This document shows, in pieces, positions 1-12,494 of a DNA stretch of 64,000 bases. Origin of the DNA: a virus (lineage: Duplodnaviria > Caudoviricetes); the IMG/VR virus record IMGVR_UViG_3300032373_000001; one strand, given 5' to 3'. Position 1 is the first letter of the stretch, and each line of letters starts with the position of its first letter. The notes beneath the pieces are model-generated. The model ran no database searches. It was not told the DNA's origin and saw only the letters and a list, made by a program, of their open reading frames with translations. A program made the position numbers and the translations under genes.

Positions 1-348
1 ATCTCGCATCGGAGAGTGCCGCACCATCTGGCCCCAAGGACTGCCGTGGAGGCTCTTGAAATCCTTGGAACACAGCGGACATCCAACAGCTTGGAGCTCG
101 GCTGCTCGCTTCAGTCGCCTGCCGTTGAAGCAAAGATCACTCACCCGGAGCTGTATGCCAACGATGCTGCACATCGCCTCCAGTGCAGCTCCTCGGTTCT
201 TGCCGGTGCGGACCATGAAGTTCATCCCCACCCAGTGGCTCACTCGGGACTCGGGATGACCCAAAGAGCGAAGCAGTTCCTTAGCTTGGGCCTCCCCATC
301 ACGGGTTGCCAGCAGCTCCAGGAGCGCTTCGGGGTCGATCTCGGTCAT
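1..348 (-). CDS. hypothetical protein, partial (runs off window start)
   Basis: Manual translation from ATG at 348 (MTEIDPEALLELLATRDG...GCPLCSK...) stays open to position 1; not in supplied track. Confidence 0.6.
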   Translation of the reverse strand, partial: MTEIDPEALLELLATRDGEAQAKELLRSLGHPESRVSHWVGMNFMVRTGKNRGAALEAMCSIVGIQLRVSDLCFNGRRLKRAAELQAVGCPLCSKDFKSLHGSPWGQMVRHSPMRD

Positions 349-480
349 GTAAGATTCCCTGTAGGATTTCTACGGCCGTAGCTACGCGGGCTTGGTGAAG
401 TTCCATACCCCGCGCAGGATAAGTCGGAGGAGCTGACGATAGCCTTGCGGTCTGAGCAGCTTCAAAGAGGACCACCCTCT

Positions 481-960
481 TTACTTCCCCTGCTGGGACC
501 TGATCTGCTCCGCCCGACGACGGGCTTCGCGGAGCTCGCGCTGGGAGGTTTTGACTTGACCTTCCCAGTAGCTCACCGCATCCAGGGCCTGCTGCAGCTC
601 ATAGCTTTTATGGAGGTCCTCGGGCTTCTCAGCGACGGAGACCAGAGCAGCCAGGGAAGTCAGAGCAACCGCCCGAGAGGATTCCGACGCCTCGACCTCC
701 AGGACCTTCCAGTCATCGTCCACCATCTCCGGGAAGATCTCACTGCCCCACCAGCTCCGCAGATCCTCCTCCCCTTCCTTGGAGTAGAGGTTGAAGCCGA
801 TCGTGTGGTGCCGACCACCGCCCGTCGAGTAGGGGATAGCGATCACTCCCCAGGCGTCGAAGACCCCATACAGTGCACGCCACCGCCTCTTGTCGCGGTT
901 GTCGGTCCACCCCTCCGTAGTCGGGTCTCGCCAGCTGTCCCACTCCTCACTATTCTGCAC
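481..960 (-). CDS. hypothetical protein with C-terminal coiled coil
   Basis: Track ORF 481-1203; GTG at 960 overlapping the upstream stop is the likelier start. Confidence 0.65.
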   Translation of the reverse strand: MQNSEEWDSWRDPTTEGWTDNRDKRRWRALYGVFDAWGVIAIPYSTGGGRHHTIGFNLYSKEGEEDLRSWWGSEIFPEMVDDDWKVLEVEASESSRAVALTSLAALVSVAEKPEDLHKSYELQQALDAVSYWEGQVKTSQRELREARRRAEQIRSQQGK

Positions 961-1372
961 CACTCGCCTCCGGCAGCTGGAACTCGTATATGTGGGATCG
1001 AGAACTCTTCTTTCCATCGAAGGAGATCCAGGGGAGGCCGTCCCCAAGAGCACGGAGAACGGCCGACCGGATCGTGCTGGGGCTGTTCCCACCGCCGGCC
1101 CAGCCCAGCCTCTCGAGGACCCGAGAGATTTCCTTGAGGGTGAACCCTCCCACCAGCTCGCCTTCCTGGAGGGCGAAGTACATCCAGTCGATGCAGGTCG
1201 CACGGCGGGGTGGTCGGGGGAACCGGGTGAGAGGCTTCGCTCGATCGGACTCCACCGGCACAGCAGCCAGGATCCGAACCTCTTGACACAGGGGCAAGAG
1301 AAGCGCGACGACTTCTTCGAGAGACCCCTGGGGCACGTCCAACTCTACGGTCACTACCATCACTTCACCCAC
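950..1372 (-). CDS. putative winged-helix DNA-binding protein
   Basis: FTLKEISRVLERLGW..NSPSTIRSAVLR followed by a beta-wing resembles wHTH (HARE-HTH-like); overlaps neighbours in operon. Confidence 0.45.
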   Translation of the reverse strand: MGEVMVVTVELDVPQGSLEEVVALLLPLCQEVRILAAVPVESDRAKPLTRFPRPPRRATCIDWMYFALQEGELVGGFTLKEISRVLERLGWAGGGNSPSTIRSAVLRALGDGLPWISFDGKKSSRSHIYEFQLPEASGAE

Positions 1373-1854
1373 TTGTTAGGGAAGCAGAGCGCGCACCCCT
1401 GCTGATGACCCCGAGAAGCGCGCACCCCTGTTGCGTCTGCCCTTACCTGGAGGGAGGTCCACCGCTGCTCGATCTCCCAGGATGGCTTCAAAGCCTGATC
1501 TGGGTCCCTATTCAAGAACCGTTCCGCTGCCCAGAGCCGACCCAAGGGGGAGGGGGAGGGGTCGGTGCTGCCAGCGATCCCTCCCAACCAGCCCAGCCAA
1601 CGAGACCCCCCCTTGTGCCCCAACATCCAATGCGGTGCCTGGATGAACCAAGGCCGGTTGAGCCAAGAGCCCTGCGAGGAGTGGACCAAGAAGGGCACTC
1701 GACCCACTCCCATCACCCAGCGCAACTCCTCTGCCTGATCGTAGACTCGTGGGTCGAACACTCCATCGACCCACGCTGATGCGTAGAGGTCTCTCAGCGA
1801 CTGAAGCTCAGAGGTCGCGCCATAGGGGTCGCGGTCCTCGCAGTGGGTCACCAC
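1360..1854 (-). CDS. hypothetical protein
   Basis: ORF tiles the minus-strand operon with short overlaps. Confidence 0.6.
   Translation of the reverse strand: MVTHCEDRDPYGATSELQSLRDLYASAWVDGVFDPRVYDQAEELRWVMGVGRVPFLVHSSQGSWLNRPWFIQAPHWMLGHKGGSRWLGWLGGIAGSTDPSPSPLGRLWAAERFLNRDPDQALKPSWEIEQRWTSLQVRADATGVRASRGHQQGCALCFPNKWVK
1388..1430. repeat. 14-bp direct repeat AGCGCGCACCCCTG x2
   Basis: Exact copies at 1388-1401 and 1417-1430, 29-nt period. Confidence 0.85.
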
Positions 1855-2258
1855 GTGGGGTCCGCCGCCAAGAACTTCTCCAGGTCGATCACGCCCATGA
1901 CCATCTCGGTCTCACACCCATGAAAGTTGAGGCTGAAGTCGGCCTCGGCCTCGGCTGCTTCCTCCGTGGGGTAGACCTTGGCCTTGGACGGGTCCGTGTT
2001 CTCGCACCCGTCCACATCGATGATGCCGGTGGTCTGGTCCAGGATGGTTGTTCGGACCCACCCCTGAGCAGTCAGCCCCTGCTCCTCAAGCTCTTCCGAG
2101 ACGAAGAGGAAATTGAGCGCGTTCTTGGGGCTCCTCCACCAACAGCAAAAATGACAGAGACCGCTGGGGTGCCGAGAACCTTCGGCATACCCCTCGTGCT
2201 CCCAGCCATCACTCTGAAGGTCGGTGCAGTCGTCATCCTGGCAATAGTGCTTTTTCAT
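1848..2258 (-). CDS. hypothetical Cys/His-containing protein
   Basis: 136-aa ORF tiling the operon; YCQDDDC and LCHFCC motifs. Confidence 0.7.
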   Translation of the reverse strand: MKKHYCQDDDCTDLQSDGWEHEGYAEGSRHPSGLCHFCCWWRSPKNALNFLFVSEELEEQGLTAQGWVRTTILDQTTGIIDVDGCENTDPSKAKVYPTEEAAEAEADFSLNFHGCETEMVMGVIDLEKFLAADPTW

Positions 2259-2267
2259 GCCCCAAAC

Positions 2268-2996
2268 TTACCGGGGGACCCCAAGGAAGGACCGCAGGAC
2301 CTTGGGTCGACCCAAGGTGAAGGCGCGGTCAGGGCCGGATACGCTGATCAGCACTTCACGGGGAGGCACAACATGAGGAAGGGTGTCCGGAGAGAAGACT
2401 GTACCAAGCTGGACATGCATGCCCCGACTTGGGTACATCTCCCGTGCAGGACCAGTCCTTCCCCTCAATGCCTGCCAGCAGCACCGAAGGTCCTCTTCGG
2501 TGTAGACCTCGTCATGAATGTTGTAGAGGCGGGCAAGAACCTGCCAATTGCCCGCCTCAAGCTGGATGCCCGAAGAGACCAAGAGCTCCCGGCCTTGGTC
2601 TCGATGTTGACGTTCTTTGTGCGTCAGGAGCCCCAGCACCGCACTTGGTGGGGCATCTTCCTCGACCCATCCCGGCATGACCGCTGGAAGGATAACTGCC
2701 GACCGAGCAAGCCGGATTCGGGGCAACTCCCCCATTCCCAAGAGACGCAGACACTGCCGACACTTCCCCTGCTCAGGCTTCGGGACGTAGGCATTTTGGG
2801 CGTACTGGGCAGAGGGGCACGCGAACCGAATACGATTCGAATCTGAGACGACCAGGTGCTTCTTGGTCCTACGCAGTCCTCCCTGAAGGCTCATCCACGC
2901 TGCTTGGACCAACCGCCTGTCCCGGAGGTGCTGGTGCCAATCCGCTTCCCTGCGGAAGGTCTGAAGGTCCGGCCCATTCACAAGACAGTCTGCCAT
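2268..2996 (-). CDS. hypothetical protein
   Basis: Track ORF 2268-3323; ATG at 2996 (MADCLVNG) just after upstream stop at 3002. Confidence 0.7.
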   Translation of the reverse strand: MADCLVNGPDLQTFRREADWHQHLRDRRLVQAAWMSLQGGLRRTKKHLVVSDSNRIRFACPSAQYAQNAYVPKPEQGKCRQCLRLLGMGELPRIRLARSAVILPAVMPGWVEEDAPPSAVLGLLTHKERQHRDQGRELLVSSGIQLEAGNWQVLARLYNIHDEVYTEEDLRCCWQALRGRTGPAREMYPSRGMHVQLGTVFSPDTLPHVVPPREVLISVSGPDRAFTLGRPKVLRSFLGVPR

Positions 2997-3001
2997 GAGG
3001 G

Positions 3002-3457
3002 TCAGTCCACGTTGTAATTGACGGCCACGTTGTAGTTGACTGCGTAACCCCAGTTCTCCAGGAACTCGTTGACCCGCTCGATGACTTCCTCCGCCGCCTC
3101 GTAGTCCTGACCGTAGCGCCGATAGAAGTCCTCGACGTGGAGCGATGCTGCCTGATCCACCGTGTAGGCTCCGAGCGCTTTCAGGACATCGTACAGGTCC
3201 TCGTCCAGACAGTACAGGCCCCGCGCTTCCACGTAGGGGGCCAAGGCCCCGCGCAACTCTTCCACCTCCAGGGCCACCCGGACCACCAGGGAGGACTCCC
3301 ATGCGTAACCACACTCGGGGCACGTCAGCCCCAGGTCAACGTAGGTCTCACCGCCCTGAAACGCGAACGTCTCAGGCCTGGTGATCTCGTACTCGGAGGA
3401 GCACTTGGGGCACTCACCCTCGTGGGTGAATTCAGAAATGGTGTGGGTCCCTTTCAC
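3002..3457 (-). CDS. Zn-ribbon plus NusA acidic-repeat-like helix-hairpin-helix protein
   Basis: CPKC and CPEC pairs; C-terminal LDEDLYDVLKALGAYTVDQAA..GQD..AEEVIERV fits NusA AR / alpha-CTD HhH pattern. Confidence 0.55.
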   Translation of the reverse strand: MKGTHTISEFTHEGECPKCSSEYEITRPETFAFQGGETYVDLGLTCPECGYAWESSLVVRVALEVEELRGALAPYVEARGLYCLDEDLYDVLKALGAYTVDQAASLHVEDFYRRYGQDYEAAEEVIERVNEFLENWGYAVNYNVAVNYNVD

Positions 3458-3987
3458 GACGTCCGATCCTTACGTTTGTGGGCGGGACACTTCGGACCGC
3501 CCTTGTTGTGGCGGCAGTCATTACCCCAACCCCCAAGGTAGAAGCCGGTCTTGGGGTCTACGCAGTAGCCGCCGAAGCCCATGTAGTTTGAGGCACTCTT
3601 AGCCTCAGTGCGCCAGAGGGCTTCAGGTACTGGTGTCCGGTACTTCTCCGACTGATGCGCCCAGTCGGGGTGAGGAAAGCCGGTCTTACAGTACCGACAG
3701 GTCTCCGCAGTGCAGAGCACTGTCTGGTGCGGAGACGCCACCGTAGGGTCCCGGAGAGCCCTCAGCTGCTTCTTGTTGCACTCCTCCTCGGTGAGGGGCA
3801 CATGCTGGTAGTTGGAGTGACCGCACTCCAAGACCTGCACCGGGTTCTCAGGGGTCGGCTTCTTTTTGGGGGTTGGAGGCTTCTTAGCAGGTGCGGCTTT
3901 CTTCTTCGGAGGGGGCTTCTTGTTCTTCTTGGGTGTAGGCTTCTGGTAGCCTGCCCAGTCCTCGATCATGTCGAAGATGTCAGCCAT
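3454..3987 (-). CDS. hypothetical Lys/Pro-rich, Cys/His-rich protein
   Basis: KKPPPKKK low-complexity N-terminus; CRYC and C..H..C..H motifs. Confidence 0.7.
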   Translation of the reverse strand: MADIFDMIEDWAGYQKPTPKKNKKPPPKKKAAPAKKPPTPKKKPTPENPVQVLECGHSNYQHVPLTEEECNKKQLRALRDPTVASPHQTVLCTAETCRYCKTGFPHPDWAHQSEKYRTPVPEALWRTEAKSASNYMGFGGYCVDPKTGFYLGGWGNDCRHNKGGPKCPAHKRKDRTS

Positions 3988-4080
3988 CCTGACTTCCCCC
4001 CAGAGCCTGCCCGGTCTCTGCCAGGACCTGATCCACCGTGGGGTGGCCGTCGTTGAGCTGGCCTCCGTTCTCCGCGTGCC

Positions 4081-4587
4081 TCATGCGTCCTCCAGCGCCT
4101 TCATGAGCGTACCCTGCAGACCCAAGAGGGTGTCTCCGAGGGCGACCATCCGAGGATTCGGGCGAGCCCGCTTCCGGACTCGATAAAGCTCCTCCACTGC
4201 ATCCTCGGGCGAGCGATGCAGGGCCAAGAGAATGAGCGCTGCCGTCGTAGAGCGCGACACCCCGGCAGCGCAGTGGATCAGGGTGCGTCCCTTGAGGGAC
4301 CCGCCGAAATTGATGAGGCTCAGAATGTCCCGGCGAGTGGGCGGGCGAAGGGCACTATGCCCTTCCTCTGAGAGGTCATCGAACTCCAGCCGCAGCTTCG
4401 GTATGCGCAGGGCATTCCAGTGCTGCCACCCACCCGGGGGGGTGCCTACCTCTGGCGGAGTGCCGACTATAGAGATGATGGCGTCGAACGGGCCTTCGAC
4501 CTCTTCGTCCTCGTAGTCGTCCCAGGCGCTACCATGGAGAAGCACCTCTTCGCAAGTTTCGTGATCGGTGATGACGAGGCTTTCCAT
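4081..4587 (-). CDS. protein tyrosine / dual-specificity phosphatase (CX5R family)
   Basis: LIHCAAGVSRSTTAA signature; upstream LEFDD general-acid loop; RPNPRM. Confidence 0.9.
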   Translation of the reverse strand: MESLVITDHETCEEVLLHGSAWDDYEDEEVEGPFDAIISIVGTPPEVGTPPGGWQHWNALRIPKLRLEFDDLSEEGHSALRPPTRRDILSLINFGGSLKGRTLIHCAAGVSRSTTAALILLALHRSPEDAVEELYRVRKRARPNPRMVALGDTLLGLQGTLMKALEDA

Positions 4588-4609
4588 GCACCCCTTTTAC
4601 CGGACCCTG

Positions 4610-4646
4610 AAAAACGCAAAAAGCCCCCGGCGGAGATGCCGGGGGC
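4610..4646 (-). terminator. Rho-independent terminator
   Basis: Minus strand GCCCCCGGC-ATCTCC-GCCGGGGGC then TTTTTGCGTTTTT, about 20 nt after the stop at 4667. Confidence 0.85.
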
Positions 4647-4666
4647 CGTGTGGGTGGGGGTCTAAG

Positions 4667-5212
4667 CTACTTCTTCCAACAGAGTTCCGCGCAGTACATG
4701 TTGCCGCCGACCACCTTCCCAGTGCGGCGATCCTTGCGCTGCTTGGACTTGGCCTTGGGAGCACCGCACTTCGGGCAACGGTGCTCCCGCTTCGGGATGT
4801 CCGCGTAGGCTTCACGTGCCCGCCGGACGGTGCGTTCGACGATGCTTTCCACGGAACTGCCCGCACGGTTGATGCGGCGTTCCTTGAACACGCCGCGCTC
4901 CTCGCCGTTGTTCTTGGTGTAGACGACAATCACTCGAACGGCATCGCTGCCGACGCCGCGCGCTTCGAGGCTGCTGCCTCCTCGGGTCCGGACCGCCGAA
5001 GTGTAGACCCGAACCTTCATGCGGGGGACGGTTCGATGGGGGAACTCGAAGACCAACTCGTTGGTTTTCGGGAGGCGGACCTCCCGAAAACCTTTCGCGT
5101 AGAGGGTTTGGGTCAGGCCCCAAGCCAACGTCTCCCGGTGACCACGGTTCCGGGGATCGTATTTGACGGTCATGGCATGCTCCAGGATATGAGGGTGATA
5201 TCTCACCCTCAT
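4667..5212 (-). CDS. hypothetical protein with C-terminal Zn ribbon
   Basis: CPKCGAP...YCAELC. Confidence 0.75.
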   Translation of the reverse strand: MRVRYHPHILEHAMTVKYDPRNRGHRETLAWGLTQTLYAKGFREVRLPKTNELVFEFPHRTVPRMKVRVYTSAVRTRGGSSLEARGVGSDAVRVIVVYTKNNGEERGVFKERRINRAGSSVESIVERTVRRAREAYADIPKREHRCPKCGAPKAKSKQRKDRRTGKVVGGNMYCAELCWKK

Positions 5213-5236
5213 TACGGCACCCCTGCCGCCCCGAAA

Positions 5237-6640
5237 TCAACCCTTGAGGAGATTCGGGAATTTCAGCTCAGCACCGGCACCCAGGACCCGGTCGATGGCT
5301 GAACCCAGGGACAGGGGGGGCGGGAACGCGGTCGACCGATCCTCGACCGCGTTGACGATGCGGCTCATCTCGCCCTGGTCGACGGCAGTGTTCTGGAGGC
5401 GCTCGACCGAACACCTCAGGTCCTCCAGGTCTCGGAGGAGGAAGGCCATCTGATCCGAAACCTTGCCGGCGTCTGCATAGGGGGCTGGAACCGTGACCTG
5501 TTCTTCGACCAAGAGCTTGAGTCGTTCGAATGCCGCCCACAGCTCCTTGGGGTCCCCCGACTGCGATGCGTCGATCATCCCCGAGAGGCGCTGCTCGACC
5601 ATCTTGATGTTGGAGTTGGTCACCAGGGCAGTCGCCCTCGCCTGCTTTCGGACGAACTGCTCCAGCTCATCCACCTTGGTTGTGACCGCACGTCGGAGGG
5701 CGACGTTTTGCTGACGGAGCTGCTCTTGGCTCTCCAGGGCCTGATCCATGAGGTTGTGTGCGCGGGCGATCTGATCCATGAGACTGGTGTTCATGGCCCG
5801 GAGAGAGTCCAGTTGCTCCCCGTGCTTCTGGGCGCGAGCATCAGCCTCCCCCAGAGCTGCCTCCAACTTCTGGAGACGGGAGTCCTGGAAGGACTGAGCG
5901 GCAGGGGACTTTTCCGTTGCGGGAGGGGGGGACTCTTCGCTTGCCGGGACCGCCTCGTCCGGTTCCGGGGCAGGCTCGGAGGTCAGCGCTGCCGCCTGCT
6001 CTTTCGCGTGAAGTACCGGGACCATCGACAACCGCATGGTCCCGTAGTTGGTCTTCTTGCCGTAGATCTCAAAGTAGAGGCGCTCTGCGGTTTGTGTCCG
6101 GGGGTTATGACCCCCTTGAAGCATGCACCAGACAGCACCGAAGATGACCGGCCTGCTCTTGTACTGGCTGAGGAGCTCCCCCGCGAAGCTGTTCCGGAGG
6201 TCTGAGAGATGCACCGCCTTCTGAGCATCCCGGATCGCCTGCTCCTTGAGCCTCCGAGGGATGAGGGCGAAGTCCCGCGCTGCGATTCGCACGTTCTCCA
6301 TGAGGTACGGGTAGCTCCCCTTCTTGCGGACCCCGGAAGAGAGGTTGCGGTACAGCTCCTCGGGGTAGTCCACGCTCAAGGGTGCGTCGGTGACTGCGGA
6401 CAGCCCCTCCACTGCCTCTCCCACCGACTTGTAGTAGATCAGGCAATGGGAGCGAGACTCACCGCCCCACGCTCGTGCTGTCCGGTCTGTGATAGGGACC
6501 TGGGTCTTCACGAAGAGGACCTTGGCCCAAGGGGGGACCCTGGACACCCGAGGCCCCAAGACCACTGGGGTGTACCCCCGGTCCCGCAACACGGATGCCA
6601 GCTTCTCTGCGATGGAATCCCCGACCACTGCTACACGCAT
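5237..6640 (-). CDS. hypothetical coiled-coil protein
   Basis: AAGGAGG RBS; 467 aa; long heptad-rich C-terminal half. Confidence 0.8.
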   Translation of the reverse strand: MRVAVVGDSIAEKLASVLRDRGYTPVVLGPRVSRVPPWAKVLFVKTQVPITDRTARAWGGESRSHCLIYYKSVGEAVEGLSAVTDAPLSVDYPEELYRNLSSGVRKKGSYPYLMENVRIAARDFALIPRRLKEQAIRDAQKAVHLSDLRNSFAGELLSQYKSRPVIFGAVWCMLQGGHNPRTQTAERLYFEIYGKKTNYGTMRLSMVPVLHAKEQAAALTSEPAPEPDEAVPASEESPPPATEKSPAAQSFQDSRLQKLEAALGEADARAQKHGEQLDSLRAMNTSLMDQIARAHNLMDQALESQEQLRQQNVALRRAVTTKVDELEQFVRKQARATALVTNSNIKMVEQRLSGMIDASQSGDPKELWAAFERLKLLVEEQVTVPAPYADAGKVSDQMAFLLRDLEDLRCSVERLQNTAVDQGEMSRIVNAVEDRSTAFPPPLSLGSAIDRVLGAGAELKFPNLLKG

Positions 6641-6678
6641 TAAGCACCTCCTTTGGTTGGAGGCACTTACCGGGCAAG

Positions 6679-7767
6679 CTAATCTCGGTGCTTGGACTCC
6701 AGGCCCACCCGGTCCGCAACCCGGTGAAACAGTTTGCCGTGGGGGTCACCGCCGGGGCTCTTGAGGGCCAAGTGCAAAGCCTCGTGCAAGAGGACCTGAC
6801 GGAAGTACTCCTTCGACTTCATCGCCGAAGGGTTGATGCTGATGACCGCATAGGGGCGGCGATCAGTGGGGGGCTCTACCAGACCCACAGTCCCCGGTTT
6901 CAGCCGAATGGTGCTGAAGGCAATGGAATAGCTCCCTGGGGGGAATGAGGGCAGGTTGCCTGTCTCTTCGGCGACAGCTGCGCAGACCTCTGCCAACACC
7001 TTCTTGAAGGCTGGACGCAATAGCTTCTTGGTGTTTTCCCAACGCACCTTCTGCTCTCGATAAGCCTCACGCCAGGGGGAGCGATCGCCCTCGCCCCTGG
7101 ACCAAACATAGACCCGTTCCCAGTGATCTTCGATGAGGGAACCCTCCGATTGGAGCCCCTCCCCCAAAGGGGCGCGCCAGTTGCCCGAAGCATCCTCGGG
7201 GAAAACCGCCGTGGTCAAGGTCCAATACTCACCGTGAACGAAGAACCTGCTCTCCACCCGAACCACCTGGGGGAGCATCGGCGTCGGGACCTGAGCCGAC
7301 CAGCCCCCAAAGGTCAAGGATCCCTTCGCGGGACGCCAAATTGCCTTCTTGGTCACCGACGCCAGGGCGAACATGAAGCTCTCCAGCCCGTCCAACCGTC
7401 CCTTGTAATAGGTGCGCGGGGTCAACCAGTGCTGCAAGGCGCTCTGGACGCTGAGTGAGGTAGCCGTGGGTATCTGGACATCTTCCAGCACGCACCGCCC
7501 CACGAACACATCCTTGGGGGTGGCGATGACGTTCTTGCCGTCCAGCTCTAAGTCATAGCCAACCACCTCCCCATAGCGGCGGATGACGCCGACGATCTTG
7601 GCGTCCTTGCCCCGCAGGGGCAACAGCTCGCCTCCTGCAACAGGACTCACCTCCACAACCTTGCCGACCTCGGCTCCCTCTCGGGAGACATCCAGGTCCA
7701 GGTTGGCTTCAAGCGGGGACTTGCGGTCCCCCACGCTCACGGAGGAAGAAGTCTTGGAGGGGCTCAT
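6679..7767 (-). CDS. protein with C-terminal SprT-like zinc metalloprotease domain
   Basis: VLLHEALHL..PHGKLF (HExxH...HG..F) preceded by ISIN. Confidence 0.75.
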   Translation of the reverse strand: MSPSKTSSSVSVGDRKSPLEANLDLDVSREGAEVGKVVEVSPVAGGELLPLRGKDAKIVGVIRRYGEVVGYDLELDGKNVIATPKDVFVGRCVLEDVQIPTATSLSVQSALQHWLTPRTYYKGRLDGLESFMFALASVTKKAIWRPAKGSLTFGGWSAQVPTPMLPQVVRVESRFFVHGEYWTLTTAVFPEDASGNWRAPLGEGLQSEGSLIEDHWERVYVWSRGEGDRSPWREAYREQKVRWENTKKLLRPAFKKVLAEVCAAVAEETGNLPSFPPGSYSIAFSTIRLKPGTVGLVEPPTDRRPYAVISINPSAMKSKEYFRQVLLHEALHLALKSPGGDPHGKLFHRVADRVGLESKHRD

Positions 7768-7937
7768 TTCTTGCTCAGCTCTCTCGCACGTGCGACGACC
7801 TCCTCGTCCAAGAGGGTGTCGATTGCCGCTTCGATGGCGCGGCTCGTCGTGGTGCCCTGATGGCGATCCCCCGTCAGGACCTCCAGACGGTCGAAGATCT
7901 CATCGCGAAGGATCGCACGGAAGGTGGTGTTGCTCAT
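7764..7937 (-). CDS. small ribbon-helix-helix-like protein (57 aa)
   Basis: Manual translation MSNTTFRAILRDEIFDRLEVLTGDRHQGTTTSRAIEAAIDTLLDEEVVARARELSKK; start/stop overlaps at both ends; below track cut-off. Confidence 0.55.
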   Translation of the reverse strand: MSNTTFRAILRDEIFDRLEVLTGDRHQGTTTSRAIEAAIDTLLDEEVVARARELSKK

Positions 7938-9307
7938 CAGACTCTCCTAAGTGCAGGGGGCTGGCTGGACCGGACCTTGACCCGGATGACCTCGGGCTCC
8001 TGGGGCTCCTGGGGCTCGTCGCCACCCCCCAAGTTGTCGAAGGGATCCCCTTCCAGCGAGCGGCCCTCGGGGGAGGGGGGATCGTAATCCGGAGCCGGGG
8101 ACATGTAGAGGACCAGGTTGACCTCTTGCTCGAACTTGCCGATGCCGTGAGTCATCAGACGCTCCACGACAGCCCGCAAGAAGGCCCCGCTCAAGCCCTC
8201 AGTCTGCCCCACTACTTGGCGGAACATCTCAGGGTCATCCTCGAAGCCGGTGAAGTTCATCGACTGGGCGTAGTGCTGGAGGATGAGAGCACGGTCCGAC
8301 TCGGCCGGCAAGTAGAGGGTGATGGTCTCTTCGATGCGCCCAGGGCGCATGCCCTCAAAGTGCCAGCTGCCCGGTTTTGGCTCCAGGTCGGCCATCTTCC
8401 CGCTGAGCATCATCGTGACGATGACGAGCGTGTCGGGGGAGCGGAGCAGCTCCAGGACACTGAGGAACAGGCCCGTGTACCGAGGGTTGCTCAGCTCCAG
8501 GTCGTCCAACAACAAGACCGTTGGGCGGAACCACTTCAGGACCCCCATCAGGTCTTCTTCGCTGAACTTGTGGAGGGCGTCGCCCGAGATCTTGAGGGTG
8601 CGCCCGTCGCCTCGCTTCAGGCCGCGAGAGATGTGCTGGGCCAAGGTACTCTTGCCGACTCCGGTCGGCCCCCGGAGCAAAAGCGTCCGGGGGCCTGGAG
8701 GGTACGCCTTGACTCGGTTGACCCAGTAGTCCACGTCTTGCTGGTGGCTGAGGTAGGGGCCAAGAGGCTCCATCGGGGCCAAGGTGATGCCTGTGCTGCC
8801 TGTGCGACGAATGCTGAGGCGGTCGCTTCGGTCCCAGAGGAATTCCAACGCATCCCGGAGGGCATCATCGCCGCGAGTGGGGTTCTTGAAGAAGCTGACG
8901 GAGCTCTCTTCCCTCAGGAAGCCAAAGCAGGGGTGGCCCTCCCCATCCCTCCAGATGTAAGCGTGAACTCCTTCTTCAAAGGGGATGCTCTCAGAACCTC
9001 CCCGTTTGTGCAACTCCTGGTACAAGAACAGCTCCAGAGGCACCTCTTCGTAGTAGAGGCCGATGCTGGTCATGAAGTGCCAGGGGTGAACCTTGGGGTA
9101 CAGGAAGTCCGTCACGCCCTTGATGGCCCCCACTCCCGCGAGGAACTGGCTGAGGTAGCCGCCTCCACGAGCGTGCCAGAGGATCTCCAGGATGCTGACT
9201 GCCCCGTTGAAGTACTCCTCATTGTTCCGGAGCCACAAGACCCAGGGTGGGATCTCGCTCGGGTCTGCAGTCGCCTTCTTCTTTGAGGGGGTCGGTCCTC
9301 TTGACAT
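7937..9307 (-). CDS. AAA+ ATPase
   Basis: Walker A GPTGVGKST, Walker B LLLDDLE, second region of homology MRPGRIE; start MSRGPTP at 9307. Confidence 0.9.
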   Translation of the reverse strand: MSRGPTPSKKKATADPSEIPPWVLWLRNNEEYFNGAVSILEILWHARGGGYLSQFLAGVGAIKGVTDFLYPKVHPWHFMTSIGLYYEEVPLELFLYQELHKRGGSESIPFEEGVHAYIWRDGEGHPCFGFLREESSVSFFKNPTRGDDALRDALEFLWDRSDRLSIRRTGSTGITLAPMEPLGPYLSHQQDVDYWVNRVKAYPPGPRTLLLRGPTGVGKSTLAQHISRGLKRGDGRTLKISGDALHKFSEEDLMGVLKWFRPTVLLLDDLELSNPRYTGLFLSVLELLRSPDTLVIVTMMLSGKMADLEPKPGSWHFEGMRPGRIEETITLYLPAESDRALILQHYAQSMNFTGFEDDPEMFRQVVGQTEGLSGAFLRAVVERLMTHGIGKFEQEVNLVLYMSPAPDYDPPSPEGRSLEGDPFDNLGGGDEPQEPQEPEVIRVKVRSSQPPALRRV

Positions 9308-9668: not shown

Positions 9669-12494
9669 CTACAGACCCTCGGCGATGGCAACAGCCTTGA
9701 ACTCTTGAACGGCGACCTTAAAGGTCTCGCCGACCAAATCGTACCCGTGCTCGTCCACCACACGCAGGTCATCCATCCCCTTGCCTCGACAACGGAGCAG
9801 GGCGCGGGCGACCCGCTCGGCGTTCTCGGGAGTCAGACGGTTGCTACTGAGGACAAAGCGGTGGATGCCATCGACGACGTCCATCGGAAGGCCCCCCTCT
9901 TCCGCTTCCTCTTCTTCCTTGGGGGGAGGGGGCTTCAGGAGGGAGGACGCGGAGTCCTCCGGGAGGGAATCTACATCCACCCCCTCAACCGGCTTGCCTC
10001 CGTGACTGAGGTAGTTGGCGTAGCCCTTCGGGAAGACCTTGACCAACTCCGATGTCCAGTCGCCACCGCCCTGATTGTAGCTCATCTCGGTGTAGTTGTA
10101 GGGGACGGTCCAGTCGTCGCCGAACTCGATGTCGACCTTCAGGGGAACCTGCCAGGGGAGGTTCTTGGTGGTATCGAAGCACATGATGCGTTCGATTAGC
10201 TCCAGGGCCTCCTCGGCGATAGAGTCGTGGATCTCGAAGACCAGCTCATCGTGGATGGTGATGACCATGTAGATGAGGTCCGCACCGCTCTTGCGGAGGA
10301 TCCACCCCTTCTTCTTGAACGCCCGATACAAGAGGCCCATAGCCAGCTTCATAATGTCGGCCGAACCGCCCTGGACGGGACCGTTCACAGCGTTGCGCTC
10401 CGCCTTGGATCGGAACTTCATGAACTCGTGGTCGATGTCCGGCACCGGGTACTTCCGCCCGAACGGAGTCATCACATACTTCCACTTCTTGGCCAGGGCG
10501 TGCTGCTGCGACCACCACCGCTGAAGGACCCTGTAGGTCTTGTCGAACTGATGCTTGATGCGCCAGCCTTCTTCCTTGCCGCAGTTGTCGACGCTGCGCA
10601 TAACGGCGGTGCCGGTCCCTCCATAACAGAGGAGAAAATTTACGATCTTGCCGTCCTGACGCTTCATCTTGAAATACTTCGGGTCATCCTCGGGCTTGAT
10701 ACCGTAGATGTTCATGGTGGTGAGCGTGTGAAGGTCCCCAATCTTATCGGAACCGCACTCAGGGCAGAACGGGGGCGGGCGCTTGTCCCGCTCGAAGAGA
10801 AAGTCGCACTTCGAGCAGTGGAAGAACTCGTGGAGCCACTTGGGCTCGCCGCTCAGGTTGGTGACGATCCGGAGCTCGACGCCAGAGTAGTCGACGGCAT
10901 AGGACCGGAACTTGCCCTCGAACCCTTCCAGGGCAATGCGCGTCGCCGGGCGCGCGGCGATGACCTCTCGCTGGCGGTAGACGCACTCCGGCGGGGGGTT
11001 CTTCTTGTCGTAGTAAGCAGCCTTGGTGCTCTGGACGTTCCAGTTGACCTGACCGTGAAACTCCTTCTTGTTTCGAGGAGTAGGAGTGCTGAACCGGCCC
11101 GTTTCCACCTTCAGCCCATTGAAGTTGGCCCACACGCAGCCGTCCGGGCTGCGCTCGGGGGTGGTGTCTCGGTAGAGGTTGAACAGGACGTTGCCCAGCG
11201 CCTTGGTCACCTCACGGAACCGGCTGATCTTCTTCATCCACGGATAGGCTTCCCCGGCTTCGGAGATGACGGCTTCCAGCACATCCTTCGATGTCTTGAC
11301 CTGCCCCGAAGCGGCGGTTGCGATGAGGTTGGGCACCCCCAACTCCCGGAACAGCTTGCCCAGCTCTGAGGGGATGGTCACGTCGTAGCAGCCGGGGAAG
11401 TTGACCGACTCAAGCTCTATCTTAGCCGAAAGTTCCTCCCCGTCTTTGCGGAGCTTGACGACCGACTTTTGGGTGGTCATCGCGGAGTCCTTCGGGACTC
11501 GCCGCATACACTGCGCCCGGAACTCCATGTAGTCGGGGCTGACGAGGTCGGGGTCGAAGGTGCGCTCCATCTCCCGGAACCAGTTGGGGCGAGCGTCCCG
11601 GTCCAGGACCTCTTCCACCGCATCGTACACCTCAACCAGACAGTCCCACCACTCCTTCTGGCCCTTTTGAAGCAGCTCCACCAGCCGCTCGCGGTCTACA
11701 TAGATGCGGCACTGCTCCATGTAGAGCGTTCCCAGGGCGCAGACCTTCTCGATGAGGTACACGGTCTTCTGGGAGTTGCCGAAGGAATCCTTCTCAACCA
11801 CCAACGGCAGGTTGATTTCGGTCAAGGCGAAGGTACACATCGCGTCGGACGCTGCGTACCAGAGCGTCGGGGTCCAGCGAGGATCCAGCTTACTGAAGTT
11901 GTACTCTTTCTTCTTGCCCTTGTCGATGATGAACAGCTCTTTCAGCTCAATCATCTCACGATCCAACAGCCGCTTCGACTGCGCCTTGAGTCCCTTGGTC
12001 TTGTCGCGGGAGTCCTTGAGGTAGGTGAGGATGAGGTTGTCTTCCCAGGTGTTGGGATCGTCCCAATCCCCGGTAGATCCTGCGGGCTCGTACTTCAAGA
12101 ACTTGATGTCGAACTTGGCGTTGTGGAAGTAGAACTTGACGCCCTTCTCGCGAAGGCGCTTGACCATGGCCACCACCAAACGCGGAGGCACGTTCGCGTC
12201 GGCACCCTGCTCCCGGTGCCGCATTGGGACGTACCAGCCCCGGTCAGGGGTGGTCGCGAAGCACATGCCGACAATCTTGTCGCGGGTGACATACTTGCCG
12301 TCATCCGCGTCGAAGGCGCGCTGGTCGAGCCCGGTCGTCTCCAGGTCCAGGGCAGCCTTCCCTGCCGCAAGAATCTCCGCCTCCAGCTCCGCGAGGCTAT
12401 CCTGCGAGGCAAGGAGAAACGTGCACTTCTCCATCCAAGGCTTGGGGTGTACGGTAGGCTTATTCAGCTCCTCAAACTGGGCGAACAGGTCCAT
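9669..12494 (-). CDS. polA: family A DNA polymerase with 3'-5' exonuclease
   Basis: Exo I DLETTGLD, Exo II HNAKFD, Exo III YAASDA; TGRFS; motif A DYSGVELR; motif B RQDGKIVNFLLCYG; motif C TIHDELVFE. Confidence 0.96.
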   Translation of the reverse strand: MDLFAQFEELNKPTVHPKPWMEKCTFLLASQDSLAELEAEILAAGKAALDLETTGLDQRAFDADDGKYVTRDKIVGMCFATTPDRGWYVPMRHREQGADANVPPRLVVAMVKRLREKGVKFYFHNAKFDIKFLKYEPAGSTGDWDDPNTWEDNLILTYLKDSRDKTKGLKAQSKRLLDREMIELKELFIIDKGKKKEYNFSKLDPRWTPTLWYAASDAMCTFALTEINLPLVVEKDSFGNSQKTVYLIEKVCALGTLYMEQCRIYVDRERLVELLQKGQKEWWDCLVEVYDAVEEVLDRDARPNWFREMERTFDPDLVSPDYMEFRAQCMRRVPKDSAMTTQKSVVKLRKDGEELSAKIELESVNFPGCYDVTIPSELGKLFRELGVPNLIATAASGQVKTSKDVLEAVISEAGEAYPWMKKISRFREVTKALGNVLFNLYRDTTPERSPDGCVWANFNGLKVETGRFSTPTPRNKKEFHGQVNWNVQSTKAAYYDKKNPPPECVYRQREVIAARPATRIALEGFEGKFRSYAVDYSGVELRIVTNLSGEPKWLHEFFHCSKCDFLFERDKRPPPFCPECGSDKIGDLHTLTTMNIYGIKPEDDPKYFKMKRQDGKIVNFLLCYGGTGTAVMRSVDNCGKEEGWRIKHQFDKTYRVLQRWWSQQHALAKKWKYVMTPFGRKYPVPDIDHEFMKFRSKAERNAVNGPVQGGSADIMKLAMGLLYRAFKKKGWILRKSGADLIYMVITIHDELVFEIHDSIAEEALELIERIMCFDTTKNLPWQVPLKVDIEFGDDWTVPYNYTEMSYNQGGGDWTSELVKVFPKGYANYLSHGGKPVEGVDVDSLPEDSASSLLKPPPPKEEEEAEEGGLPMDVVDGIHRFVLSSNRLTPENAERVARALLRCRGKGMDDLRVVDEHGYDLVGETFKVAVQEFKAVAIAEGL

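Follow-up and report, generated by a model that had tools for sequence, protein, structure and literature searches.

A small acidic jumbo-phage protein with a zinc-ribbon signature and a predicted (HhH)2-like domain related to NusA AR1 at the superfamily level

Does a jumbo phage encode a detached acidic repeat of the host transcription factor NusA? The question is raised by a gene at 3002-3457, on the minus strand of a 64,000-nucleotide stretch of viral DNA that we refer to as the window. The initial annotation described its product as a 151-aa protein with two CxxC pairs, a zinc ribbon, and a C-terminal domain that aligns to acidic repeat 1 (AR1) of E. coli NusA, and it proposed a decoy or adaptor that reprograms host termination or antitermination. 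Lambda N is bound by NusA AR1. The window comes from an uncultured jumbo phage with very large virion genes and a family A DNA polymerase (9669-12494). The polymerase and the very large virion genes have their best relative, at 44% and 40% identity, in LR745208.1, a phage of 485 kb that is likewise uncultured; LR745208.1 yielded no match to the 151-aa protein and no NusG match.

The open reading frame and both CxxC pairs are as the initial annotation claimed. The gene has a GTG start, overlaps the stop of the upstream gene in a GTGA, and encodes a product with a pI of about 4.3 and a net charge of -19 (-12 for the helical domain). We found a syntenic orthologue, P0002, 72% identical, in a related jumbo phage contig of 87.8 kb (L001), where the gene is likewise joined to its upstream neighbour by a GTGA and the downstream gene starts in the same way. 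The orthologue cluster consists of four sequences that are 71-74% identical to the window protein. Between the window gene and the orthologue dS was 0.97 and dN 0.16, giving a dN/dS of 0.16 over the whole gene, 0.14 over the ribbon and 0.21 over the helical part. Because of the synteny and the dN/dS of 0.16 we judge the gene to be real, and it is under purifying selection.

A search of 5.8 billion proteins and a HMMER search of 1.84 billion representatives returned no further relatives beyond the P0002 cluster. Scans of metagenome and viral contigs, of INPHARED, and with neighbour genes as bait likewise recovered that cluster alone. The family thus consists of two related uncultured phages. 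Two kinds of candidate were set aside: TPR repeats and a treble-clef repeat protein among the HMMER matches were rejected as summed repeat scores, and matches to apolipoprotein and adaptin in the PDB were helical-composition noise. The whole protein had no Pfam or NCBIfam match above cut-off, and phrog_16569, a PHROG labelled virion structural protein, matched weakly (E 0.001-0.004).

The N-terminal part (residues 3-61, 3275-3451 on the minus strand) carries two CxxC pairs, C16-C19 and C46-C49, which are separated by a 26-residue spacer and invariant in 5/5 sequences. AlphaFold2 (AF2) predicts four beta strands (residues 3-15, 22-33, 37-45 and 52-60), and zinc-ribbon models of many Pfam and NCBIfam families match residues 3-61, all below cut-off. 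In the model a C4 zinc-ribbon signature is present, two conserved CxxC knuckles on beta hairpins, and the ribbon presumably binds zinc. At the other end, a short C-terminal tail of low model confidence (3005-3043, minus strand) contains the six-residue unit AVNYNV twice; its 13 codons, the last of the gene, hold two copies of an 18-bp unit. Since the tail is shorter in the orthologue, the 18-bp repeat appears to be a small recent duplication.

Residues 83-135 (3053-3211, minus strand) align without gaps to residues 364-416 of E. coli NusA, translated from NC_000913.3, with 14 of 53 positions identical. The AR1 sequence and the identity count in the initial annotation were exact. By BLASTP the best stretch of NusA was AR1 (E 0.008) and the second best AR2 (E 0.052), both in this register, and an alphaproteobacterial-type AR1 shared 20 identities. 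On an AR1+AR2 profile of about 60 proteobacterial repeats the window domain scored 15.9 bits, a score reached by none of 2000 composition-preserving shuffles (maximum 11.8), and it ranked first of the 1575 reading frames of the window and the loci. The hhalign probability was 76% for AR1+AR2 (P 2e-5), 33% for AR1 alone and 7% for the RNAP alpha-CTD. The mean gapless BLOSUM score over four panels was 43 for AR1, 11 for AR2, -3 for alpha-CTD and 1 for the helix-hairpin-helix (HhH) domains of RuvA, UvrC and LigA.

We also searched 201 proteobacterial genomes blind. The best 30 matches included 17 AR1 and 1 AR2 repeats, the top six were all NusA repeats, and neither alpha-CTD nor RuvA/UvrC/LigA HhH domains were among these 30. 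The best match was 38% identical over 52 residues with an E of 0.002, a value that counts per genome and so is not significant across the 201 genomes. Taken with the shuffles and the profile-profile comparison, the blind search indicates that the likeness to AR1 exceeds chance and that AR1 is, by sequence, the nearest bacterial match of the window allele.

The orthologue shows which of these residues count. It retains 7 of the 14 AR1 identities (7 of 53 positions) and scores 6-8 bits on the AR1+AR2 profile, and orthologues are still in the top 0.1% of shuffles. When the orthologue was the query against the same 201 proteobacterial genomes NusA was not found, and with a joint profile of the two orthologues NusA fell to ranks 8 and 10 of 13, among chance matches. 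The two orthologues differ at 17 positions; at these the window allele agrees with the AR1 consensus eight times and the orthologue once. Among the 23 AR1 columns conserved to at least 80% in 31 proteobacterial AR1 sequences, the window allele matches ten, and five (L92, G96, A104, R128 and L133) are matched in both orthologues. The residues that are invariant in the phage family form an aromatic and polar set absent from AR1. Either the window allele retains ancestral AR1 states or it was picked after drifting towards AR1; under both alternatives selection is not holding an AR1 surface.

The partner-binding residues of NusA lead to the same place. The W490/F491 pair at the end of helix 5 of AR2 recruits alpha-CTD, NusG-NTD, SuhB and lambda Q (PMC7171158). 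In the phage protein these positions map to E134/N135, and the invariant W136 and Y138 come 2-4 residues later, out of register. The NTD-S1-KH1-KH2 core of NusA is lacking ahead of the domain, where the zinc ribbon stands instead. TIGR01954, PF03118 and PF14520 had no match at E<=10, and on the AR profiles built here the protein scored 10-16 bits, compared with a curated TIGR01954 cut-off of 48.15 bits. On the same AR profile, Rad51/RadA N-domains scored 27-34 bits, Hel308 26, DNA ligase 23-25, alpha-CTD 16-19 and the window protein 14; since it scores below the Rad51/RadA N-domains, the window protein would be a distant superfamily member. The link to NusA holds at the superfamily level only. 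As a lesson in method, a match of 14 identities can be exact and above chance, yet mark just the superfamily.

The helical domain itself (residues 64-138, 3044-3268, minus strand) is predicted to be a five-helix SAM/(HhH)2-like bundle, and it contains 18 Asp/Glu versus 6 Lys/Arg (16 versus 5 in AR1). Folded alone by AF2, from an alignment of effectively two sequences, it gave five helices (65-77, 88-94, 100-104, 108-115 and 119-135) with a pTM of 0.66 and a pLDDT of 73. The last helix has the length of that in AR1 and not that in alpha-CTD. The leading Foldseek rows were all NusA AR, RadA/Rad51/Dmc1 N-domains, alpha-CTD and SAM domains, with AR1 and AR2 in rows 1 and 2, followed by RadA and Dmc1. 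No structural match was significant: every Foldseek E value was above 1 (the best 1.2), and the best Z values, 5-7, are those that common helical arrangements reach, with differences of about 1 being ties. When the Foldseek matches were realigned, a phage DNA ligase HhH was best (Z 5.7, rmsd 2.6, 61 residues), followed by Dmc1/Rad51 N-domains (Z 5.0-5.5, rmsd 2.7-3.0, 60-63 residues) and NusA (Z 3.8-4.3). A wide structural search placed integrase core-binding (Z up to 6.8) and SAM domains on top. A search with the whole-protein fold, in which the HhH rows were the sole informative ones, found B. subtilis alpha-CTD (Z 4.4, rmsd 2.2, 53 residues, 28% identity), and nothing in the viral structure library came under E 0.9. 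Atlas features led to clusters of free alpha-CTD-like, DUF4332 and HHH_5 proteins, with alpha-CTD-like proteins in rows 1 and 4 (0.80-0.81, lead level). Atlas shape led to NusA tails, and the highest Atlas TM (0.58) belonged to an archaeal topoisomerase I with zinc ribbons.

In these models the structural ranks are ties within one fold class, in which Rad51/Dmc1, SAM and alpha-CTD domains tie with or beat NusA. The model has the dual-HhH five-helix fold of the NusA repeats, but this fold is common to the rival families and so does not discriminate between them. The predicted structure places the domain in the SAM/(HhH)2 class, the superfamily of NusA AR1/AR2, the Rad51/RadA N-domain and the RNAP alpha-CTD.

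In the shared register alpha-CTD R265, N268, G296 and K298 become D87, D90, D118 and E120. The G296/K298 hairpin is a DNA-contact site of alpha-CTD. R265 and N268 are DNA contacts (PMC11434276). Five residues are near-invariant in alpha-CTD (R265, N268, N294, G296 and S299), and not one of them is retained in both orthologues; the score on an alpha-CTD profile was -0.7 bits, within the shuffle range. Neither hairpin has a GhG motif and both are acidic, and a RuvA/UvrC/LigA HhH profile of 28 sequences gave -1.9 bits. Because the DNA-contact residues are now acids, GhG is missing and the RuvA/UvrC/LigA score is negative, DNA binding by the helical domain seems improbable. The best sequence match of residues 77-139 in the PDB was a Firmicute RpoA (7l7b, E 0.047; 8 bits for the CTD stretch), Rad51/RadA did not appear at E<=10 by phmmer against the PDB, and the 151-aa protein lacks a RecA-type ATPase core. 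A complex prediction for the helical domain with a proteobacterial alpha-CTD alignment returned a score of 0.00, which speaks neither for nor against binding.

These results divide the remaining claims of the initial annotation. Its NusA AR-like domain on a Zn ribbon stands as a detached acidic (HhH)2 domain with AR1 as nearest bacterial match; that it is a NusA AR specifically is not supported. A protein-binding role as decoy or adaptor is plausible, the DNA-binding residues being lost, but the specific mimicry of NusA is not supported either: Rad51/RadA score twice as high on the AR profile, the structural ranks are ties or lean to Rad51/Dmc1/SAM, the orthologue has not kept the AR1-like surface residues, and W490/F491 is out of register. 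The Foldseek comparison that it suggested with NusA AR, alpha-CTD and Rad51-N did return AR1 and AR2 first, but with E above 1 and with higher Z for realigned Rad51/Dmc1. It had named a generic DNA-binding HhH as the structural match that would speak against it; the best match is a generic HhH/SAM fold, but not a DNA-binding one.

The surroundings of the gene are those of an accessory region. The cluster consists of unrelated accessory genes (phosphatase, SprT-like, unknowns), no transcription gene adjoins 3002-3457, and PolA and primase-like genes lie 6-10 kb away. The translationally coupled upstream gene (3454-3987, minus strand) encodes 177 aa with a Lys/Pro-rich N-terminus and a Cys/His-rich remainder and belongs to no family; it is 67% identical and likewise coupled in L001, and by adjacency only its product is a candidate partner. 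The downstream gene (2268-2996, minus strand; 242 aa) begins with an ATG 5 nt past the stop, in frame within an ORF at 2268-3323, and is conserved in L001. A promoter-like motif, TGATTTC-N15-CCGTAA (5212-5240, minus strand), heads the small-gene cluster that holds 3002-3457 and recurs with identical spacing at L001 725-753; its function is presumed. No sigma-70 consensus promoter was found in window 1-8000. Between the motif and the gene lies a terminator-like hairpin (4622-4647, minus strand; 10 pairs, 9 of them G-C, and a T run), of a kind as common in shuffles as here (5 sites found, 5.4 expected). A CCGGTAA element at 4590-4610 (minus strand), after the hairpin and before the phosphatase start, resembles the -10 half of the promoter motif and lacks the -35 half; it may restart transcription for genes including 3002-3457.

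Other features of the window were noted in passing. The gene at 4081-4587 (minus strand), three genes upstream of 3002-3457, is dual-specificity phosphatase-like with an intact HCxxGxxRS (DSPc E 2e-5, below cut-off) and is 81% identical in L001. At 3987-4078 (minus strand) a 34-codon frame matches only residues 84-109 (81%) of a 115-aa L001 gene (1880-2227); as the match is confined to the last quarter of that gene, the gene is 5'-deleted in the window's phage. The 140-aa gene at 950-1372 (minus strand) matches both halves of a 227-aa gene at L001 4866-5549, which points to either an internal duplication in one phage or a repeat loss in the other. A 362-aa protein (6679-7767, minus strand) has a C-terminal SprT-like metalloprotease domain (HExxH) above the Pfam cut-off, and the DNA polymerase at 9669-12494 (minus strand) carries a CxxC...CxxC zinc-ribbon-like insertion at about residues 570-590 of its polymerase domain.

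The reading that we tentatively prefer, at somewhat less than an even chance, is that the protein joins a zinc ribbon to an acidic HhH module that binds a protein target of its own, and serves the jumbo phage as an accessory protein. The helical domain would dock on a basic, nucleic-acid-binding protein surface, as the NusA acidic repeats do, through a conserved aromatic and acidic face (Y98, D101, H107, F111, Y112, Y115, Y119, E120, W136 and Y138). The zinc ribbon would give a second contact, so that the protein could act during infection as an adaptor or decoy that bridges or blocks the basic surface. The most likely target is a component of the transcription apparatus, encoded by host or phage, and it may be something other than a known NusA partner. 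Two points make transcription the likeliest setting: both of the families nearest in sequence are transcription domains, and free alpha-CTD genes occur in phages. As for origin, no other route is as likely as descent from a captured NusA AR1, which has a chance only just short of even.

True NusA mimicry is unlikely. A captured acidic repeat would here compete with or replace AR1/AR2 at alpha-CTD, NusG, SuhB or an N-like antiterminator and would shift termination or antitermination. That NusA repeats supply 18 of the 30 best matches in the 201 proteobacterial genomes fits this, as do the AR1-length last helix, the first two Foldseek rows and the AR1/AR2-like acidity. However, the orthologue leads to no NusA, the joint profile leaves NusA at ranks 8 and 10 of 13, just 5 of 23 AR1 columns are kept in both orthologues, E134/N135 stand in place of W490/F491, and Rad51/RadA N-domains outscore the window protein on AR profiles. 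It is distinctly unlikely that the domain is a NusA acidic repeat taken up by the phage and deployed, together with the zinc ribbon, as a free-standing decoy or adaptor for host NusA partners. If this were true, no earlier case of a NusA AR domain encoded by a phage would be known, and phages would have gained a further means of retuning termination. Binding to NusA partners would mean mimicry from the other side, and would offer a small reagent that separates AR-dependent from AR-independent NusA functions; a domain that does not bind them would be one more orphan zinc-ribbon/HhH accessory protein.

We consider it quite improbable that the likeness is incidental, with an acidic helical bundle unrelated to HhH in which one allele drifted towards AR1, in an ordinary accessory or structural protein. 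The AR1 signal does lie mostly in one allele, no family is above cut-off, integrase core-binding domains top the wide search and phrog_16569 matches weakly; but the sequence profile, the language-model features and two predicted structures independently reach the same superfamily, and the orthologues remain in the top 0.1% of shuffles on the AR1+AR2 profile. A diverged free alpha-CTD, which would have lost DNA binding, kept its activator-facing surface and titrate host activators or Spx-like regulators, is very doubtful given the -0.7 bits, the hhalign probability of 7% versus 76% for AR and the loss of near-invariant residues. On its side are the Firmicute RpoA as best PDB match, the Z of 4.4 for B. 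subtilis alpha-CTD, Atlas feature rows 1 and 4, and the fact that phages do carry free alpha-CTD genes. Very improbable is a nucleic-acid or repair accessory of the Rad51-N, ligase or topoisomerase kind, a zinc finger with HhH that would work with the phage replication machinery. Ligase HhH (5.7) and Dmc1/Rad51-N (5.0-5.5) have higher Z than NusA (3.8-4.3), topoisomerase I with zinc ribbons has the top Atlas TM, and PolA and primase-like genes lie within 10 kb, but such Z differences of about 1 are ties, and the domain and overall charges of -12 and -19, the missing GhG, the negative HhH profile score and the lack of a catalytic domain argue against it.

The phage antiterminators lambda N and Q bind NusA, and we know of no phage antiterminator that copies a piece of NusA. 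The literature that we searched contained no report of a phage NusA-AR mimic. Neither the 50,697 phage records of INPHARED nor IMG/VR yielded a free AR-like gene; the matches were host nusA genes. The only NusA-AR1 match in IMG/VR, at 3001-3120 of L192, sits at the extreme end of a viral contig of 37 kb and is probably part of a flanking host nusA. We take TIGR01954 and the PDB entries 1U9L, 1WCL, 1WCN and 6IB8 to represent AR1/AR2. The NusA AR domains are acidic dual-HhH protein-recruitment modules (PMC6614801, PMC7171158). The phage domain is like them in its predicted dual-HhH five-helix class, its 53-residue gapless register, its acidity and the loss of DNA-binding hairpins; unlike them it is present in a single copy on a zinc ribbon, and the AR1 hallmarks EGF, AY and RA are partly missing. 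With the Rad51/RadA/Dmc1 N-domain it shares fold and register, and this is the best superposition among the named families (Z 5.0-5.5), but it has neither a RecA-type ATPase nor a GhG hairpin, is strongly acidic and shows 10-20% sequence identity.

Small C4 zinc ribbons such as the CPXCG family (PF14255) and the TFIIB-type (PF08271) have two CxxC pairs on beta hairpins, as predicted here, whereas the phage ribbon has a long 26-residue spacer and every match is below cut-off. T7 Ocr and SPO1 Gp44 are acidic phage decoys of nucleic-acid-binding surfaces (PMC13401047). Like them the window protein is small and strongly acidic and could occupy a basic RNAP surface; unlike them it has a different fold, and the likeness is one of logic only, without evidence for a DNA-shaped charge array. 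Alpha-CTD (PF03118) and the free phage alpha-CTD-like proteins belong to the same predicted fold class as the phage domain, in which the last helix is one turn longer than in alpha-CTD and acids replace the DNA contacts. We observed alpha-CTD-like domains in the cultured phages Ruegeria V16, Bacillus Goe8 and Microbacterium Mazun (L144 1132-1998, L145 751-1383 and L146 970-1395); Goe8 has two such places, and two of the cultured-phage proteins are annotated just as HTH or DNA-binding. The proteins concerned, Bacillus phage Goe8 c00050, Ruegeria phage V16 gp23 and Microbacterium phage Mazun gp26, reach 87-92 bits on an alpha-CTD profile of which they are themselves a part, compared with -0.7 for the window protein, and they are a precedent for a detached host transcription domain carried by a phage. 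The architecture of a zinc ribbon with an acidic HhH domain belongs to no family, and detached transcription-type HhH domains in phages are already known.
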